Assembly (NCBI GenBank): GCA_963664825.1
Contig: OY761614.1
Location: 1,632,001 to 1,696,000 of the forward strand
Direction: 5' to 3'
DNA length: 64,000 nt
Origin: an uncultured Holophaga sp.
GTDB lineage: Bacteria; Acidobacteriota; Holophagae; Holophagales; Holophagaceae
Below, one piece after another: positions 35,792-43,740 of this stretch. The position numbers were made by a program, and so were the translations under genes. Position 1 is the stretch's first letter; the number at the start of each line of letters is the position of its first letter. The notes below the pieces were generated by a model, which was given only the letters and a program-made list of their open reading frames with translations, made no database searches and had not been told where the DNA came from.

Positions 35792-36496
35792 ATGAAGTTC
35801 AAGCGCATCCTCCTGAAGCTATCCGGCGAGGCCCTCATGGGCGCACAGGCAGGCGGCATCGATCCCGCGGTGGTCACGATGGTCGCCAACCAGGTGAAGG
35901 CCATCCAGGAGTTGGGCGTTGAAATCGGTCTGGTGATCGGCGGGGGCAATATCTTCCGCGGCGTGGCCGGGGCCACCAAGGGCATGGACCGGGTCACGGG
36001 GGACCACATGGGCATGCTGGCCACCATGATCAACGCCCTGGCCCTCCAGGACTCCCTGGAACAGAAGGGTGTCCAGACCCGGGTCATGAGCGGCATCGAG
36101 ATGCCCAAGATCTCCGAAAGCTACATCCGGCGCCGGGCCGTCCGCCATCTGGAAAAGGGCCGCGTCGTCATCTTCGGCGCGGGTACGGGCAATCCATACT
36201 TCTCCACCGACACAGCCGCCGCTCTGCGGGCCAACGAGATCGCGGCCCAGGTGGTGATGAAGGCCACCAACGTCGATGGCGTCTACAGTGCCGACCCCAA
36301 GAAGGACCCCACGGCCACCAAGTACGACCGGGTGGGCTACCAGGAGGTTCTGGAGAGGGGCCTGAAGGTCATGGATGCCGCGGCCATCGCCCTCTGCATG
36401 GAAAACAAGCTGCCCATCCTGGTCTTCAGCATGGCGGAGCCGGGTAACCTGCTGGCCGCCGTGGAGGGCAAGGTCATCGGGACGCTCGTGGGCTGA
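35792..36496 (+). CDS. pyrH: UMP kinase
   Basis: [37 protein letters not shown]. Confidence 0.97.
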
Positions 36497-36694
36497 GCCC
36501 TTCCGCCCCCAGTGCACGTCCACGGTCTTCACGCCGTGCGTCTCGCAGCGGCAGCGAGGCACCTGGGCCGTGAGATAGGCCGCGTGCTGAAAGAAGTCAG
36601 GGTGCCGCCAGGTCTTCTCCTCTATGTCGTGGGCCTTGCTCGGCTCCCCGCACTCGGGACACGGGAAGGAAGCCCCCTGTTGGAAGTCCAGCCG
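36497..36694 (-). mobile_element. ISL3-family transposase fragment (zinc-finger region)
   Basis: RLDFQQG..FPCPECG....HD....TWRH.DFFQH..YL.A.VPR..C..HGV; no start and no catalytic domain; abuts the pyrH stop. Confidence 0.85.
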
Positions 36695-36870: not shown

Positions 36871-36900
36871 TTGACCAACAAAGGAGGCATAACCTAAAAT
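36871..36900 (+). promoter_or_regulatory. Candidate sigma70 promoter for the peptide gene
   Basis: TTGACC-N18-TAAAAT, 23 nt before the ATG at 36924. Confidence 0.45.
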
Positions 36901-36923
36901 TAATCCCCAACCAAGGAGGCCTC

Positions 36924-37103
36924 ATGGCCAAGCTTATTCTCAATCACAACTTCAAGCGTGTTGACCCCACGACGCTTAATAAAATGGTCACTGGTGGTAG
37001 CTTTTGCGATGTCCTGGCGGAGTCGCGGATGACTGCTGCAAGACAAGGTGACAACGTGCGCCATACTTTTTTGTGTCACATGTATGTCACTCTCTGCCAA
37101 TAA
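36924..37103 (+). CDS. Double-glycine-leader precursor peptide, 59 aa (RiPP/bacteriocin-like)
   Basis: AAGGAGG RBS (36913-36919). Translation MAKLILNHNFKRVDPTTLNKMVTGG|SFCDVLAESRMTAARQGDNVRHTFLCHMYVTLCQ. Has its own terminator and lies near C39 exporter genes; below the ORF-track size cut-off. Confidence 0.8.
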   Translation: MAKLILNHNFKRVDPTTLNKMVTGGSFCDVLAESRMTAARQGDNVRHTFLCHMYVTLCQ

Positions 37104-37131
37104 TAGGTAAATATTGATTGTGTTTTGTGTG

Positions 37132-37162
37132 CCGCCTGAGATATTCTCGGGCGGTTTGTTTG
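37132..37162 (+). terminator. Intrinsic terminator after the peptide gene
   Basis: ccgcctgaga-tat-tctcgggcgg followed by tttgtttg. Confidence 0.75.
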
Positions 37163-37170
37163 TGTCCGGT

Positions 37171-37253
37171 GTCGACAAATGGTGCCTATCTTTTTGCACA
37201 ATATCACCATGTGCAAGAGGACCTTCGAAGAGATGGTCGAATCCGGGAGGCGA
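37171..37253 (+). mobile_element. Degenerate 5' remnant of an IS1595-like element
   Basis: 37209-37253 matches the reverse complement of 40094-40138 at 33/45 nt (MCKRTFEEMVESGR vs MRKEAFEGMLESVGR), with weaker similarity upstream. Confidence 0.55.
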
Positions 37254-37707
37254 GCCTTGAGGTCTGGATCACTCGTGTTCCGCGGCTCGGGCACTTACTG
37301 CCCCTGAGGTGGCGATTCTGAAATTCTGGCACCGAACAGGCCCATGCGGTTCGACCTCGGCACGGAATATTACAGAAATTTTCAAAATTAATAACTCAAA
37401 AAAACATGTATCTCGAGCTTTAGGCGTAGAGCTAATTGGGTCGATTTAAATTAATTGATCCGGTGGCTATGGAAATATGACTATTCCCATGTCAGTCTTG
37501 GGTTCTTTGATTGTCAACTTTCCGCCAAATTAATTGATTTCCTTGCTGCTGGTTGGTATATTACTGTTTATTGCTACCCAATAGGATGATTCGTTAGTGA
37601 TTATCGTTGATGTTACCAATGACAAGGTTTTATCTGTAATAAGTATAGATTTGGATAAGGTTGAATTCTCGAATTGACGAAAGGTATTTTCTCGGGGTAA
37701 ATAGATA

Positions 37708-39336
37708 ATGAACAAATATGATGTCCAGATTGTTGATGTGGTTGATCACCTCTTAGGGCATCTTGGACTATACAAGAAAAAAAAAGATGTGTTTTACGAT
37801 TTAATGTGTCATCCTCGATTCCCTTCGATTTTATCCATTGTGGATACCTTGAAATTATGGGGCATTTCAAGTGACGCCTACTATTTTCAGGTCGATAAAG
37901 ATCTTGATGGAGAATTACCAGGGATTGCGAGATTGAAAACCGATGATTTTGTAGCAATTCACAGCATAAAAAATAATTGTGTAACTTACTGGCACCCGAA
38001 GCATGGGACATGCATACATGGAGCTGACAAGTTTGAATTTCTCAGAGAAGTAATATTGGTTGACAAGTGTGATGTGAGTAGGATAAAACCAATTGGTTCA
38101 CTCGGTAATGTTTTAGATTACAAGTTTATTAGCGTTTATGCTGTATTAGCGCTGTTGGCTCCTTTTGTATTGGTGTCGGGATATTTTACAAAATACTGGC
38201 TTGCATTTTTATTAGTCTTATTGACTGAGATCGTGTTAAGTCTGATTTTGTATCTTTCACAATTTTCAGATAGAGGTTCGCCAGGATATTTGTGCCCAAC
38301 TAATCGGTTCTTTGATTGTTCCTCGGTTATAAATTCTCCAGCAGGGGAACTATTTGGTAAGCCCATGAGCGAGTGGGGAATCATAATATTTGGTGGTTGT
38401 CTTTTGACGGTATTTATAGCATCTATACTTAAGGTTCTGCCAGATATAATCCCTTGGCTAATGTTGGAGCACCTTCTGATATTGTTATATTGTATGTATT
38501 TAATTTTGTACCAAAGCGTAGTTATTAAGAAGTGGTGTATTTTGTGTTGTATTGTGCATGGGCTAATTGCATCGAATTTATTCCTATTGGTAAGTATTTT
38601 ACAACATCAGCAACGATCTGATCGTTTTTTTATTGCAAAAGTATCAATAAGCATGGTTGCGGGAGTGTGCTATTCGTTTATCGTCTGGTCGATGTATAAA
38701 AAAATTATCAACATGTTGCATGACAATAGGCAAAATAAAATTGAACTATTGCGAGTCAGGCGCGATCCGACATATATCGAAAGTTTGATTTCCAGCGAGG
38801 TACCTCTCCGGATCGATCGATTTCATCGAGAATTGATCTGGGGTGATCCAATAGCACCGAGGACAATTACAATTGTAATAGGTCTTGGGTGCCGCTACTG
38901 CAGGAACTTAGTAGAAGCTCTGGATAAACTTGTTATGTCTGAATTTAAAAATTACAAAATTTTCGTAAGATTCATAGGACAAGAGGATGGTTCGCGTATT
39001 ACTTTGAACGATTCTGTGGTATTGCGTTTAATAGAAATATCTATGCATAACGGCGGGGCTCAGGCAATGCAGGCGCTGATGGATTATTATTCAATGCAAA
39101 CAAATGTTAAAAATAAATATTTATATACGTGGTTGGAAAAGTATAACCTAAATTATGCTGATATCTCTAGAGAGGCGCATGCGTTGTATAAGCAACACAA
39201 TAAATGGCGCAATGATATGGGAATAGTTGAAGTGCCTACGGTATTGATTGATGGGGTAGCTTTGCCTAAAAATATTCCACAAATAGATGCAATATATTAT
39301 ATTCTAAAAAAAGATAGAGAAATTATCGGGGGTTAA
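37708..39336 (+). CDS. C39-peptidase-like + VKOR + thioredoxin-domain membrane protein
   Basis: N-terminal HPRFPSILSIVDTL; VKOR loop cysteines LCPTNRFFDCSSV and TM CxxC WCILC; C-terminal GCRYC and VPTVLIDG; AT-rich codon usage. Confidence 0.85.
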   Translation: MNKYDVQIVDVVDHLLGHLGLYKKKKDVFYDLMCHPRFPSILSIVDTLKLWGISSDAYYFQVDKDLDGELPGIARLKTDDFVAIHSIKNNCVTYWHPKHGTCIHGADKFEFLREVILVDKCDVSRIKPIGSLGNVLDYKFISVYAVLALLAPFVLVSGYFTKYWLAFLLVLLTEIVLSLILYLSQFSDRGSPGYLCPTNRFFDCSSVINSPAGELFGKPMSEWGIIIFGGCLLTVFIASILKVLPDIIPWLMLEHLLILLYCMYLILYQSVVIKKWCILCCIVHGLIASNLFLLVSILQHQQRSDRFFIAKVSISMVAGVCYSFIVWSMYKKIINMLHDNRQNKIELLRVRRDPTYIESLISSEVPLRIDRFHRELIWGDPIAPRTITIVIGLGCRYCRNLVEALDKLVMSEFKNYKIFVRFIGQEDGSRITLNDSVVLRLIEISMHNGGAQAMQALMDYYSMQTNVKNKYLYTWLEKYNLNYADISREAHALYKQHNKWRNDMGIVEVPTVLIDGVALPKNIPQIDAIYYILKKDREIIGG

Positions 39337-39716
39337 TCTATATTACTGTCGAATTGCATATGGTCGAATCAAGATTTAGTCCATTATGAAATAACGGAGA
39401 AATTCAATATCTGCGCGATTATTGGTTTTTGAATTGTGGTATAATGATAAATGTATAGGTCAAAATGGATGTTGGCGAGGAGCTAAGTCTCAGACACTGC
39501 TTGACGCCGATCGAGCGTGAAAGCAGCTGGTTTGCATCGGACAGTACCTTCGCGAGCCTGAGTGGTCGGCACTGTATAATCCAACAAACGCAATCCTGAT
39601 ACGTTTTTATGGGGATCTATCGCATTTAAGAAAGATTAGGGTGAGCTGGGTGGTGAATACGATGGGATAATCTCTAGGTCAAGGCATACGGGTCACTAGT
39701 GTCCCACGATTGCATT

Positions 39717-40208
39717 GGCTATGTTCGCGTTGTTCGTTGGTAGTGATCTGCCCCGAGTGAAACCCGGATGAGTTTGCTTGGCGTGAGGGTTTCGGAGTGG
39801 CCATCCAGGAGGCGGTGCCAGCCGAGGTAGTTGGGGAGATAGTAGGTGCCGACGCCATGGAACCGGGCGATCCAGGCCTTGAGGCGGCTGTAGTAGGCGT
39901 TGACGTTCTGGACGTGGAAGGCCTGGCGAATGCGTATGTGGGCACTCAGGTTCACAGATTCGTGCACGATGGCCATGGATTTGGCGAACGCTTCGTAAAC
40001 CGGGCACCCTACGGAACCGGCCTCGCCGGAACTCTTACACCACGAGATGGGACGCGGGCTCTCCACCAGCGCGTTTCGTTGCCCCGGCGTCAATCGCCCT
40101 ACGGATTCCAGCATCCCCTCGAAGGCTTCCTTGCGCATGGCAACCTCCCGCACAAGTCCAGTTCACTTATCGACTTGGGAAATACCCATGATTAGCGCAG
40201 ACATAGCC
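39717..40208 (-). mobile_element. Internally deleted IS1595-family element (492 bp, MITE-like)
   Basis: Terminal IRs ggctatgt.../...acatagcc; 8-bp target duplication attgcatt (39709-39716 and 40209-40216); transposase C-terminus FHVQNVNAYYSRLKAWIARFHGVGTYYLPNYLGW. Confidence 0.92.
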
Positions 40209-40275
40209 ATTGCATTTGTATCTATTTTATGTGTACCTGTTATCTGCGAAGGTCCTCTGTCCATCTGGAGCTCCA

Positions 40276-41496
40276 TTGGAATGCGATTCTCAGCCTCGAT
40301 CATCCCTCTTCCGTCAGGAGGCCCTGGAACATCTATTTAAAAATCATGATATCCGTGAACCCTTGTGGGTCTCGCCTCCCTGGACCTGGTTGCTCTTCTT
40401 CGCCCTCGGAAGCGTCTTGCTGGTGGCCCTTCTGGCGGCAATCGTCGGCAAGGTAGAAGTTCAGGACACGGGCAAGGGGATTCTGCACCCTGTGGCGGGT
40501 GTGCGCCTGATCCAGGCTCAGGTTGGGGGAGTGCTGGCCGAGACCTATGCTCACAGTGGCGATACCTTGAGAGAAGGCCAGCCCATCGCCCGCATTGATT
40601 CGGCCCAGGTGCAGGGCGCCATCCTGGAAACGGATCGTCAGTTGCAGCTCCTTCGCTCCCAGGGGCAAACCTTCACCGAGCGAGAAGACAAGTTGCTCCA
40701 GGAACAACTTCGCGCCGTCCAGACGAAGCTTGTCCATCAGAACACGCAAGTGAAAAGCTTTGAGAGTTCCGTGAAAATCCAGGAAAAGAGAGTGGAAGCT
40801 ACGCGCAGACTGCTTGTGGAAAAATTGGTGGCACCCATCAATCTAGACGAGGCTCAAGATCAACTCAATGCGGCCCTACGCACACTCGATAGCGCGAAGC
40901 AGCAAATGGTGCAGCTTCGCCAGGAGTTTTCGACTCTTGAGAGCCAGCGGCAACGCAACCAGTGGCAACGGCTCCAGGACCTGAATGGCTCCCAGTCCAA
41001 GCGGGATGCCCTGGATTCGTCCTTGCGTCAGACCAATGTCGTAGCGCCGGTGGCGGGTTTTCTGGAAGCCCTGGTGGCGCGTCCAGGGGATCTTCTTCAG
41101 CCGGGGCAGACCATCGCCAAGATTATCTCCGAGGATTCACCGCTGCAGGTGGTGGCCTTCCTGCCCGAAAAGGACCGGGCCTTCGTCAAGTCGGGCGATC
41201 AGGTATTGCTGGAAATGGAGGCCTATCTTTTCACGGAGTTTGGCACATTGAAAGGCCGCGTCACGCGCATTGGGTCTGATCTGGCCTCTCAGTATGAAAT
41301 CCAGGAAGCCCGTGGGGAAACGGGCAAGCTGGATACGCCAGCCTATCGCGTGGAGATCGAACTGCGGCCCGAGCGCTCCAAGCGTTTCTCGGGCGTGAAG
41401 ATCCGCCCCGGTATGCTGCTTTCGGCTCGCTTTACCCTGCGGCGGCAGCGCCTCATCACCATCGTGCTGGATCCCCTGCGACGCTGGCTGGAGTAG
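40276..41496 (+). CDS. HlyD-family membrane fusion protein of a peptide exporter
   Basis: SLFRQEAL N-terminus, one TM, lipoyl-like halves, coiled coil, EFGTLKGRV, IRPGM; probable TTG start after GGAG. Confidence 0.9.
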   Translation: MECDSQPRSSLFRQEALEHLFKNHDIREPLWVSPPWTWLLFFALGSVLLVALLAAIVGKVEVQDTGKGILHPVAGVRLIQAQVGGVLAETYAHSGDTLREGQPIARIDSAQVQGAILETDRQLQLLRSQGQTFTEREDKLLQEQLRAVQTKLVHQNTQVKSFESSVKIQEKRVEATRRLLVEKLVAPINLDEAQDQLNAALRTLDSAKQQMVQLRQEFSTLESQRQRNQWQRLQDLNGSQSKRDALDSSLRQTNVVAPVAGFLEALVARPGDLLQPGQTIAKIISEDSPLQVVAFLPEKDRAFVKSGDQVLLEMEAYLFTEFGTLKGRVTRIGSDLASQYEIQEARGETGKLDTPAYRVEIELRPERSKRFSGVKIRPGMLLSARFTLRRQRLITIVLDPLRRWLE

Positions 41497-41502
41497 CCCG
41501 TG

Positions 41503-42329
41503 ATGCACCGCGTTCCTTACGTCCCCCAGATGGAAATGGTGGAGTGCGGCGCCGCCGCGCTGGCTATGGTGATGGGCTATTGGGGCCATCATGCGCCCCT
41601 TCCAGAGGTGCGCGAGGCCTGCAAGGTCTCTCGGGATGGCGCCAACGCCGCCAATATCCTTCAAGCTGGGCGGAGTTTTGGCCTGGAGGCCGAGGCCGTG
41701 AAGGTGGAGGTGCAGCACATTCGGGATCTTCCTCTTCCCGCAATTCTCCACTGGGAGTTCAAGCATTTCGTGGTGTTGGAGCGCATCACCTCCAGGGGTG
41801 TCCATATCGTGGATCCTGGGATGGGCAGGCGCTTCGTCACTTGGGCGGAATTTCGAACATCATTTACGGGAGTGGCGCTGGTATTCGCTCCCGATGACGA
41901 CTTTGTCGAACGTAAGCGGCGCTTCCCAAGCTTGGGCCGCTACCTGGAAATCCTGCGGAGCGTTCGGCCCAGTCTCGTGCAGCTTCTGGGGGCTTCCCTC
42001 ATGCTCCAGGCTGTGGGTCTGATATTTCCCGTGGCCAGTCAGGTCCTGGTGGACCGGGTGCTTTTGCCCCACTACCAGCCTTGGTTATGGGGACTTGCAG
42101 TGGGTCTCGCGTCTGCCGTGATCGGATACCTGGCCAACGCCAGCTCGTGGCTATCACAGCGGTCCTGGCCTCAGACAAACATCTCCTGCTCCTGGACGAA
42201 GTCCTTTCCAATCTAGACTGGGTGAGCCGCCAGCGTATCCTCCAATGCCCCCGGTTCAAAGGCAGAACCATCATCTATGCAAGTCATGAGGAAGTCCTGG
42301 TGGGAAGAGAAGAGGGGAAAATGTTGTAA
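41503..42329 (+). pseudogene. C39-peptidase ABC transporter with a large internal deletion
   Basis: Intact C39 domain (QMEMVECG, LHWEFKHFVVL, IVDP) and about 2 TM helices. Near 42125 it jumps into another frame encoding an ABC C-terminus (PGQRQL..LLLLDEVLSNLD..ASHEE). Most of the TMD and Walker A are absent. Confidence 0.85.
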
Positions 42330-42402
42330 TTATTTATTAATTGAATTGCATTAGGCGGTGGTTTCATGCATGGCATAGCCCCCGGCTAAACTGAGACAAT
42401 AA

Positions 42403-43740
42403 ATGCACCCCTTCCCGGAGATCCCCCAGGCCCGCATGATCCTCGACCCCGAGGGGCTGGAGGCCTACCGGCGGGACGAATCCCATCTCCAGGGGCCAAG
42501 GCCCCTGGCCGTGGTGAAGCCCCGCGGTCCCCAGGCCCTTCGGGAGCTGGTGCGCCTGGCCAAGACCGAAGGCTTCGCCTTGGTGCCCCGGGGCACGGGC
42601 ACGGGGAAGGCCGGGGGCTGCGTGCCCACGGAGCGATGCGTGGTGGTGGACTTGAGTGAATGGCCTGGGGAGATCCGCATCTCCCGCCCGGATCTCGCCC
42701 TCCAGGCTCCGGCCAGCGTGCTCCTGAGGGAGGTGAAGGCCGCTGCCTTGGCTCAGGGCCTCTTCTATGCCCCTGATCCGAATTCCTGGGATCAATGCTC
42801 CTTTGGCGGCACCCTGGCCACCAACGCGGGTGGGCCCTCCGCCGCCAAGTACGGCATGACCCGGCACTGGGTGTTGGCGGTGGAGGCCCTCATGGGCGAC
42901 GGCGAGATCCACACCTTCGGCATTCCCACCGTGAAGAACAACGCCGGGCCCGCCCTGGCCCAACTCCTGGTGGGCAGCGAGGGCATCTTCGGCATCCTGC
43001 TGGGCGCCACCGTGCGCTTGATCCCCGCGCCCCGGGAGCGGCTCACCCTGCTCTTGCCCGCCCGGGATTGGCACAGCCTCCTGGAATTGCCCTCCCTGCT
43101 GGTGGGCGCGGGACTCCTGCCCAGCGCCTTCGAGTTCTGGGACCCGGCGGTGCTGGAGCTGTTGCGCCACTTTGGCCCCGAAGAGGCCCGCCGGATGCCG
43201 GGAGAGGGTCTCGCCCTGCTGGAATTCGATGATCCGGGCTGCGGAACGGAAGCCTTCCTGGAACAACTGCTGGAGCTCCTCGGCCCGGTCTCCGAGGATC
43301 TGCAGAGCGCCACCGACGCCCGCCAGCGGGAAGCCCTCTGGGCCATCCGTCGCCAGACCAGCGTCGTGCTCAAGGATCACTTCCCCCGGAAGATGAGCGA
43401 GGATATCGTCGTGCCGAGAAGCCAGGTGCGCGCTTTCTTTGAGGGTGTAGACGCCCTCCATCTGCCCCTGGTGACCTACGGGCACCTGGGGGATGGCAAT
43501 CTGCACGTGAATTTCCTCCAGGCCGGGGAATGCGCGCCCCCGGAGATGGAGGCCCATCTGATGGCCCTATTCCGTCTATGTCTCCGGTTGGGGGGCACCC
43601 TCAGCGGCGAACATGGCATCGGCCTGGCCAAGCGGGAGGCCTTTCTGGCCCTCTCCGATCCGTACCAGATCCAGGCCCTGCGCGCCCTCAAGGGGGCCCT
43701 GGACCCCTTCGCCCTCTTTAATCCCGGAAAGGTCATTTGA
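42403..43740 (+). CDS. FAD-linked oxidase (GlcD/D-lactate dehydrogenase family)
   Basis: PRGTGTGKAGG, APDPNS, GGTLATNAGG, GSEG, GHLGDGNLH, SGEHGIG, NPGK. Confidence 0.92.
   Translation: MHPFPEIPQARMILDPEGLEAYRRDESHLQGPRPLAVVKPRGPQALRELVRLAKTEGFALVPRGTGTGKAGGCVPTERCVVVDLSEWPGEIRISRPDLALQAPASVLLREVKAAALAQGLFYAPDPNSWDQCSFGGTLATNAGGPSAAKYGMTRHWVLAVEALMGDGEIHTFGIPTVKNNAGPALAQLLVGSEGIFGILLGATVRLIPAPRERLTLLLPARDWHSLLELPSLLVGAGLLPSAFEFWDPAVLELLRHFGPEEARRMPGEGLALLEFDDPGCGTEAFLEQLLELLGPVSEDLQSATDARQREALWAIRRQTSVVLKDHFPRKMSEDIVVPRSQVRAFFEGVDALHLPLVTYGHLGDGNLHVNFLQAGECAPPEMEAHLMALFRLCLRLGGTLSGEHGIGLAKREAFLALSDPYQIQALRALKGALDPFALFNPGKVI

Follow-up and report, generated by a model that had tools for sequence, protein, structure and literature searches.

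Bacteroidetocins, the class IIf bacteriocins of Bacteroidota, carry four cysteines and migrate in a manner consistent with disulfides; according to the available text of their description, both a thiol oxidoreductase and a membrane protein are needed for their full activity (PMC6671954). Disulfide relays in which the membrane protein VKOR is fused to a thioredoxin-fold partner are represented by the Synechococcus VKOR-thioredoxin (4NV2/4NV5/4NV6) and a Clostridium VKOR-DsbA, and the known VKOR-DsbA fusions work in the periplasm, as far as the accessible portion of that report describes them (PMC12453122). Most VKORs are outward-facing; the available sections of PMC13486548 name inward ones from a few Crenarchaea, an inward archaeal VKOR serving as a control for cytoplasmic oxidation. 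Here we analyse 64,000 nucleotides of an uncultured Holophaga sp. (the window, C1:1632001-1696000, on a single 3.47-Mb contig of a genome with a completeness of 96.6%), in which a 5.9-kb island encodes a 542-amino-acid (aa) protein with C39-like, VKOR and DsbA domains, together with a 59-aa putative double-glycine (GG)-leader precursor, an HlyD adaptor and the remains of a C39-ATP-binding cassette (ABC) exporter. Sequence comparisons make it probable that the family of this enzyme acts on cysteine-containing GG-leader peptides and faces inward. The locus itself we are slightly inclined to read as a mosaic copy, likely in decay, of a system that exports disulfide peptides, since its exporter is broken by two deletions and its lone peptide fits the family poorly.

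The fusion loci are like bacteroidetocin loci in combining a GG-leader cysteine peptide with a C39-ABC exporter, and by analogy the system may operate as bacteriocin loci do, with a disulfide catalyst of its own. In bacteroidetocin loci, however, the oxidoreductase and a five-helix protein are separate genes, and the word 'VKOR' occurs 0 times in the main text of PMC6671954, whereas here the functions are joined in one polypeptide. Compared by description only, as given in the available text, the bacteroidetocin precursor has a leader of about 15 aa and a 42-aa core with four cysteines, whereas the window peptide has a 25-aa leader, a 34-aa core with three cysteines and a broken exporter; the island falls outside class IIf. 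The Synechococcus fusion shares with our enzyme the VKOR core and a fused thioredoxin-fold CxxC (Z 13.2-13.3 to 4NV2/4NV5), and the accessible text on the Clostridium protein describes the same core with loop pair, membrane CxxC and fused thioredoxin-fold CxxC (PMC12453122). From both, on the descriptions available, the window fusion differs by an extra N-terminal helix and C39-like domain, by a predicted opposite orientation and by its tie to peptide genes instead of general envelope folding. The catalytic cysteines of Aeropyrum pernix ApVKORi (cited in PMC13486548) are cytoplasmic, as predicted here, but this protein is archaeal, and no C39-like domain or peptide cluster is mentioned for it in the accessible text. 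In full-text literature, with subscription journals and supplements outside the search, we found no description of the three-domain fusion or its peptides.

Disulfide formation in bacteria is generally placed outside the cytoplasm. If our reading of the family is true, an inward-facing VKOR-DsbA that docks leaders would act as a cytoplasmic oxidase targeted to its substrates, and the fusion would mark a large pool of diverse peptides with 4-8 cysteines, mostly in Bacteroidota.

The three-domain enzyme and its family

The open reading frame (ORF) at 37708..39336 on the + strand (GC 0.37; GC at third codon positions, GC3, 0.36) encodes a full-length fusion of a dead C39 domain, a six-helix VKOR and a DsbA domain with all six redox cysteines. 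A C39-like/VKOR/thioredoxin protein had been foreseen in the original prediction, and a hidden Markov model (HMM) scan with Pfam recovered VKOR at residues 170-293 (E 4.6e-15) and Thioredoxin_4 at 375-521 (E 7.8e-5, just over the cut-off). Pfam gave no C39 match; this fold emerged from profile and structure model. A four-sequence family profile matches the PCAT1 peptidase domain (E 1e-9) as well as the VKOR structure 4NV6 (E 0.003), and hhalign of the enzyme's N-terminus with the adjacent C39 gave 97.5%. The model from a 146-row alignment (predicted local distance difference test, pLDDT, 89.8; predicted template-modelling score, pTM, 0.86; pTM 0.45 in an earlier 31-row model) matches, over residues 1-130, PCAT1 and the GG-motif protease-leader complex (6V9Z, 6MPZ; Z 15-16, root-mean-square deviation 2.8-3.0), and the C39-like domain of a secretion ATPase, 3B79, has the same fold (Z 13-16 for the set). 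Unlike these proteins, the enzyme lacks the catalytic cysteine and histidine and is fused to an oxidoreductase, not a transporter. Residues ~160-305 match VKORs (Z 13-15) and residues ~365-540 ScsC/DsbA proteins (Z up to 17); a phmmer search of the C-terminal part against the PDB returned only chance-level matches. The redox residues are C196-x7-C204, C277ILC280 and C395RYC398, accompanied by the VKOR serine S210 and the DsbA cis-proline P510. A C39-like domain without catalytic cysteine, also foreseen, is what the alignment yields, with Ile8 and Asp80 at the catalytic cysteine and histidine positions. Domain order, the six cysteines with S210 and P510, and the dead peptidase all place the protein in a family of C39-like/VKOR/DsbA fusions.

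This family comprises 2,342 representatives (50% identity clusters) at E <= 1e-30 in a HMMER scan, far above the 4, 5 and 41 matches of word-based protein searches. Of the six redox cysteines, C395 occurs in 247 of 248 aligned homologues and the other five are invariant, and the D/E-C-G motif is found in none of the fusions vs all 42 full-length neighbouring ABC proteins. Of 38 conserved positions, 11 deviate from the consensus in the window enzyme, one of them being Gly174Glu, where conservation is 99%; the family median is 3, and the enzyme ranks second worst among the 248 sequences. Its nearest relative shares 30% identity with it. Close relatives were found neither among 36 genomes of the host family nor in two metagenome scans, in which 8 of 28 pattern matches were distant homologues. 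A VKOR-core tree (52 rows; 8 lacking the regex motif dropped; bootstrap not settled) groups the enzyme with Bacteroidota fusions in a 37-row clade (98/99); its position inside the clade and its donor are not settled by this tree.

The original prediction had staked itself on an association of VKOR fusions with cysteine-containing GG ORFs and C39 exporters, a test set beforehand, and here it held. We counted neighbours in the best 80 of 242 confirmed genome loci, which were found with the WCPLCL pattern and which, by record title, come from Bacteroidota (77), Planctomycetota (1), Bacillota (1) and an unassigned organism (1). A same-strand GG precursor was called in 62 of these 80 loci, a C39-ABC in 46 and HlyD in 38; the fixed leader rule used for calling misses real precursors (e.g. 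in L069), and the 18 loci lacking a call are in many cases short contigs. Where >=5 kb of sequence is present on each side (46 loci), 43 loci have a same-strand GG precursor (42 within 1.5 kb), 34 a C39-ABC and 27 HlyD; opposite-strand GG calls number 4. The 139 cores, a list in which a few calls are false and some are lanthipeptide precursors, mostly have an even, non-zero cysteine number (115, with six cysteines in 63 and four in 34; odd in 19, none in 5), as do the nearest precursors per locus (even 55, odd 6, none 1; n=62). Other tailoring enzymes are rare in the best 80 loci (LanB in 2, ATP-grasp in 0, radical SAM-motif ORFs in 6), and the fusion is thus the sole recognisable core-modifying enzyme in most loci, whose cores look built for disulfides. 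Oxidative folding as the only tailoring, as originally suggested, thus fits the family; it finds no support at the window locus, where LanB and LanC exist in trans and the core has three cysteines.

The family's charge bias predicts that the cysteines face the cytoplasm; this predicted topology, which the original prediction had overlooked, is the system's most unusual trait. Both family hydropathy and the structure model give six helices, and with this even number the loop pair and the membrane CxxC come to lie on the same side of the membrane as the two terminal domains, C39-like and DsbA. A signal-like N-terminal segment is absent in 243 of 248 fusions. In 246 of 248 fusions, vs 6 of 35 control VKORs, Lys/Arg residues favour the side of the cysteines, and 29 controls show the reverse; the controls came from the host phylum (41 given, less 4 without the motif and 2 duplicates), and two of the six exceptions are fusions themselves. 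The orientation of the window enzyme is predicted from this family bias and the absent signal peptide.

In the mechanism we propose, suggested by fold and neighbouring genes, the dead C39 domain would hold the GG leader, and the DsbA CxxC would take electrons from the core thiols and pass them, along the conserved VKOR relay, through C196/C204 and the membrane CxxC to quinone. With six helices all three modules would share a side of the membrane, by prediction the cytoplasmic one; leader cleavage and export of the folded core would then fall to an active C39-ABC with HlyD. These last two steps are established for peptidase-containing ABC transporters (PCATs). The host chromosome carries two C39 genes, one VKOR and two futalosine-pathway menaquinone genes; neither DsbB nor a further Thioredoxin_4 protein was found in the genome (completeness as given above).

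Several relatives of the fusion deserve mention in their own right. A scan of 400 host-phylum genomes gave no match over the full length of the fusion profile; among the 30 loci returned, of which the others were only partly inspected, two partial matches turned out to be full-length, GC-rich fusions. These 602-aa C39-like/VKOR/thioredoxin proteins (L196:135-1943, L197:754-2562) are followed by ATP-grasp-like ORFs, and their VKOR cores group with the controls and not with the Bacteroidota fusions, subject to a long-branch warning, which hints at a separate origin of the fusion. In two loci (L036, L099) the VKOR fusion stands beside LanB, LanC and cysteine-rich precursors of class I type, candidates for peptides with both thioethers and disulfides, and three others (L087, L091, L093) show a tandem of GG precursor and AhpC/TlpA-domain protein (350-480 aa) with up to four repeats per locus. 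Small stand-alone VKORs also occur. Those of one family of the same phylum (f40, L006-L010; 215-230 aa) have a fusion-like inverted charge pattern and clade position, without C39-like or DsbA domain and with no evident peptide gene within ~1.5 kb; those of family f23 (L184, L185, L189, L029) show the Lys/Arg bias to the cysteine side and are a possible second, independent inward group.

A broken exporter and an atypical putative precursor

A GG-peptide exporter had been postulated for this locus, and of its two components only HlyD is intact (40276..41496, + strand; probable TTG start at 40276, frame open from 40210). It is a copy of the HlyD of a lanthipeptide cluster elsewhere on the chromosome (95.6% at the aa level to C1:2659250-2658015; ratio of non-synonymous to synonymous substitutions, dN/dS, 0.09; dS 0.23). 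The postulated C39-ABC transporter is reduced to a 238-aa stump (41500..42216, +), composed of an intact C39 peptidase domain, the start of the ABC1 membrane domain and 27 nt of ABC2 ahead of a frameshift and stop, and a 3' remnant of ABC2 with the Walker B and H-loop region (42132..42329, +), which is out of frame with the stump and has 80% nucleotide identity to the paralogue and 83% to two congeners (dS 1.0, dN/dS 0.09). Compared with the paralogue, 2,461 bp from ABC1 into ABC2 and 868 bp within ABC2 are lost, and these two deletions fuse the remnants of two ABC genes into one stump. We rejected an assembly artefact as their cause, as the junction region is unchanged in short-read contigs of two studies: contigs from runs X1 and X2 (X1 possibly the source) cover 42078-43000 without differences and bridge the second junction by 54 bases and the first by ~30, at the detection margin. 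The exporter is thus destroyed in cis. A PCAT, with C39, complete membrane domain and nucleotide-binding domain, is absent from the island and present in the paralogue (C1:2655873-2658008). Both catalytic residues of C39 and the first hydrophobic stretch survive in the stump (41500-42216), which could therefore act as a membrane-tethered leader peptidase without transport.

The intact paralogue lies ~1 Mb away (C1:2659250-2653805) and has 95% nucleotide identity over 1,854 bp to the island copy, with a C39 region 96% identical to the island's. Over the three surviving HlyD/ABC pieces dN/dS is 0.09-0.13, with dS of 0.23, 0.03 and 1.0. The combination of dS 1.0 and dN/dS 0.09 in the ABC2 tail points to a long functional history apart from the paralogue; judged by these substitution patterns, the island copy appears older and independent, under selection until recently, and was probably homogenised in part with the paralogue. 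The paralogue belongs to a class I lanthipeptide cluster with LanB, LanC and three precursors matching NF038153, one of them above the cut-off, and this cluster represents the source lineage of the island's HlyD and ABC genes. The island itself does not qualify as a class I lanthipeptide locus, as it lacks LanB, LanC and a leader of the NF038153 type. The earlier statement that no lanthipeptide enzyme is present thus stands for the island and fails for the chromosome. In 14 host-family loci taken from 35 listed HlyD matches, the related exporter cassette is accompanied by LanB in 11 and by the fusion in not a single one.

The cluster at C1:2653483-2667745 retains intact LanB, LanC, HlyD, C39-ABC1 and ABC2 and three divergent GG precursors with 3-5 cysteines; transposase-like ORFs are scattered through it, and phage- or transposon-like genes adjoin it. 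Cassettes of LanB, LanC, HlyD, ABC1 and ABC2 occur widely across the host family, 29 of 132 genomes giving HlyD matches, and some loci have two LanC. A literature search combining Holophagaceae and lanthipeptide found nothing.

A cysteine-containing GG ORF does exist where it had been noted (36924..37103, + strand). It has a strong ribosome-binding site, AAGGAGG, 4 bases before the ATG, Gly-Gly at residues 24-25, a 25-aa leader and a 34-aa core with Cys28, Cys51, Cys58 and 5 Ser/Thr, and the identical 59-aa protein is on record as a called gene and a singleton. On its sequence features this ORF is a plausible but atypical orphan putative precursor, and it fits poorly the originally assumed role of precursor in this particular system. 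Three cysteines exclude full disulfide pairing and permit at most one disulfide. A three-cysteine core occurs once among the 139 cores of the fusion family vs twice among 12 lanthipeptide-type precursors. The leader scores 2.4 bits on the fusion-family leader HMM vs a family median of 27, a score matched by 49 of 300 shuffles (-0.7 bits in an earlier scoring), and 2.9 bits, equalled by 19 of 300 shuffles, on a home-made lanthipeptide-leader HMM. NF038153 does not match it at E <= 1 and matched three other leaders in the genome. The peptide thus falls outside the fusion-family precursors, with their family leader and even, mostly 4-8, cysteines. Profile searches gave no family match for it, and no homologue was found across 132 genomes of the host family, the sole match (E 0.03) not resembling a precursor gene on inspection. 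Its L-x-L-N motif stands at the same distance from the GG as in one precursor at the paralogue locus. Co-folding of enzyme residues 1-124 (146-row alignment) with the whole precursor scored 0.27 against a mark of 0.32, with no control runs, and we count it neither for nor against. A likeness by eye to a congener's lanthipeptide precursor was rejected, as BLASTP gave no alignment.

Probable decay, possible trans activity and other explanations

The reading we favour slightly is that an AT-rich enzyme gene came to adjoin a second copy of the lanthipeptide exporter found in the host family, and that this copy, once under purifying selection, would later have been deleted; the three-cysteine peptide could form at most one disulfide, and its export would need the intact paralogue ~1 Mb away. 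In its favour are the two deletions, the insertion-element remnants, the three GC3 levels, the pairing of related exporter cassettes with LanB and not with the fusion, and the enzyme's departures from the family consensus. Several observations weigh against it or against the view of the family on which it builds. The 1.6-kb AT-rich frame is unbroken and keeps its six cysteines and the cis-proline, which speaks against long decay. The enzyme's departures from the consensus may be a sampling effect, because the family loci were found by the WCPLCL pattern, which the window's WCILC does not match, and the nearest relative is so distant. The Bacteroidota loci are kin and not independent counts, even cysteine counts also fit metal binding, and AhpC/TlpA-like redoxins, encoded in 18 of the best 80 loci, could share the redox work. 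The window enzyme's own charge bias is zero on the five-window measure, with 11 vs 5 Lys/Arg at equal density (family mean 12.9 vs 0.65).

An unlikely but serious alternative is continued activity of the locus in trans. The enzyme would then place one disulfide in the 34-aa core or act on precursors of the distant cluster, LanB and LanC might add a thioether, and the paralogous ABC1, ABC2 and HlyD would export the product, so that the cis exporter was redundant and its loss did no harm. The near-identical C39 region of the paralogue and the intact frames of precursor, enzyme and HlyD fit this, as do a core with three cysteines and five Ser/Thr, a cysteine count commoner in lanthipeptide-type precursors, the shared L-x-L-N spacing and the occurrence of the fusion beside LanB and LanC in 2 of 80 loci; yet NF038153, which finds three leaders in this genome, does not find this one, the lanthipeptide-leader score is equalled by 19 of 300 shuffles, and the precursor has no homologue in the host family. 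A bolder version seems to us distinctly unlikely: a large bacterial family of leader-guided oxidases would make cytoplasmic disulfides for a varied class of disulfide-rich exported peptides, and this acidobacterium, lacking any other recognisable disulfide-forming enzyme, would have wired one in trans to lanthipeptide machinery to yield a hybrid disulfide-thioether product. That enzyme, 59-aa ORF and exporter copy arrived separately and never cooperated, the ORF not being the enzyme's substrate, we regard as improbable. Three GC3 levels, insertion sequence (IS) remnants between the parts, the poor leader match, an exporter lineage that pairs with LanB and not with the fusion, and an unrelated gene at this site in other congeners would all suit such a chance assembly, but the order of GG peptide, fusion, HlyD and C39-ABC is the gene set of the family. 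With only two C39 genes and one VKOR on the chromosome this set is unlikely to have met by chance, and the long functional history recorded in the ABC2 tail also argues against it.

The remaining alternatives concern the enzyme itself. It could face outward like ordinary VKOR-thioredoxin fusions and oxidise peptides or envelope proteins after export, its C39-like domain being a relic. We give this very little credence: most VKORs do face outward, according to the available text of PMC13486548, the host has no DsbB or other DsbA, and the window copy's charge bias is weak, but six helices put a signal-less C39-like domain on the cysteine side, the family's charge bias is opposite to that of the controls, and after export the leader is already cleaved off. 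Least probable of all, by a shade, appears a reversed or editing relay, in which the core thiols would be held reduced or be isomerised with a view to export or metal binding, oxidation following later outside. The best structural matches of the C-terminal domain are ScsC-type (Z 16-17), proteins which we take to be isomerases, and the cytoplasm supplies reductants, so that net oxidation there is costly. A substrate in the cytoplasm, however, would stay reduced without any membrane machinery; the VKOR-DsbA fusions tested to date are disulfide-forming, as far as the accessible text of PMC12453122 goes, and the inward archaeal VKOR is a control for cytoplasmic oxidation in that of PMC13486548. 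The window locus shows the module outside Bacteroidota beside a lanthipeptide-type exporter, and it is a poor experimental choice compared with intact loci such as L049, L091 or L112.

The island and its mobile elements

The island spans 5.9 kb between pyrH (end 36496) and a FAD-oxidase gene (start 42403), in the order ISL3 fragment, 59-aa ORF, 542-aa ORF, internally deleted IS1595 element, HlyD and C39 ORF. Its accessory nature, already suspected, was confirmed: three of eight congeners lack the 5.9 kb, with pyrH and the FAD-oxidase gene spaced by 25-50 bp, two have an unrelated sensor kinase at the site, and three are uninformative. GC3 is 0.55 in the 59-aa ORF, 0.36 in the enzyme gene and 0.68-0.70 in HlyD/C39, compared with 0.83-0.88 in three host genes. 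Peptide, enzyme, HlyD and C39 ORF indeed all lie on the + strand, as had been stated, but two IS remnants on the - strand also lie in the island, and one of them separates the enzyme from HlyD.

Around the 59-aa ORF, the best sigma70-like promoter candidate (36871..36900, +; 10/12) is weak, with 8 such sites in the region vs a shuffled mean of 8.1, and a terminator-like 11-pair hairpin with T-rich tail follows the ORF (37131..37165, +), hairpins in the region (6) being no more frequent than in shuffles (6.7). Two further ORFs were rejected as extra precursors: 37179-37307, which has no GG and no family match, is not on record and scores <0 on the leader HMM, and 37114-37260, which overlaps the hairpin and likewise scores <0. 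Among RNA data sets, none was listed as containing the island.

The ends of the island showed no target-site repeat. The left edge, directly after pyrH, is formed by an ISL3 transposase fragment (36495..36690, -; Pfam Zn_ribbon_ISL3 E 5.6e-10, NF033550 E 6.7e-12), whose DNA has 83-88% matches to multi-copy DNA in congeners. Between enzyme and HlyD lies the internally deleted IS1595-family element (39706..40219, -; NF033547 E 5.7e-16), which is bounded by imperfect terminal inverted repeats with arms at 39706-39742 and 40183-40219.

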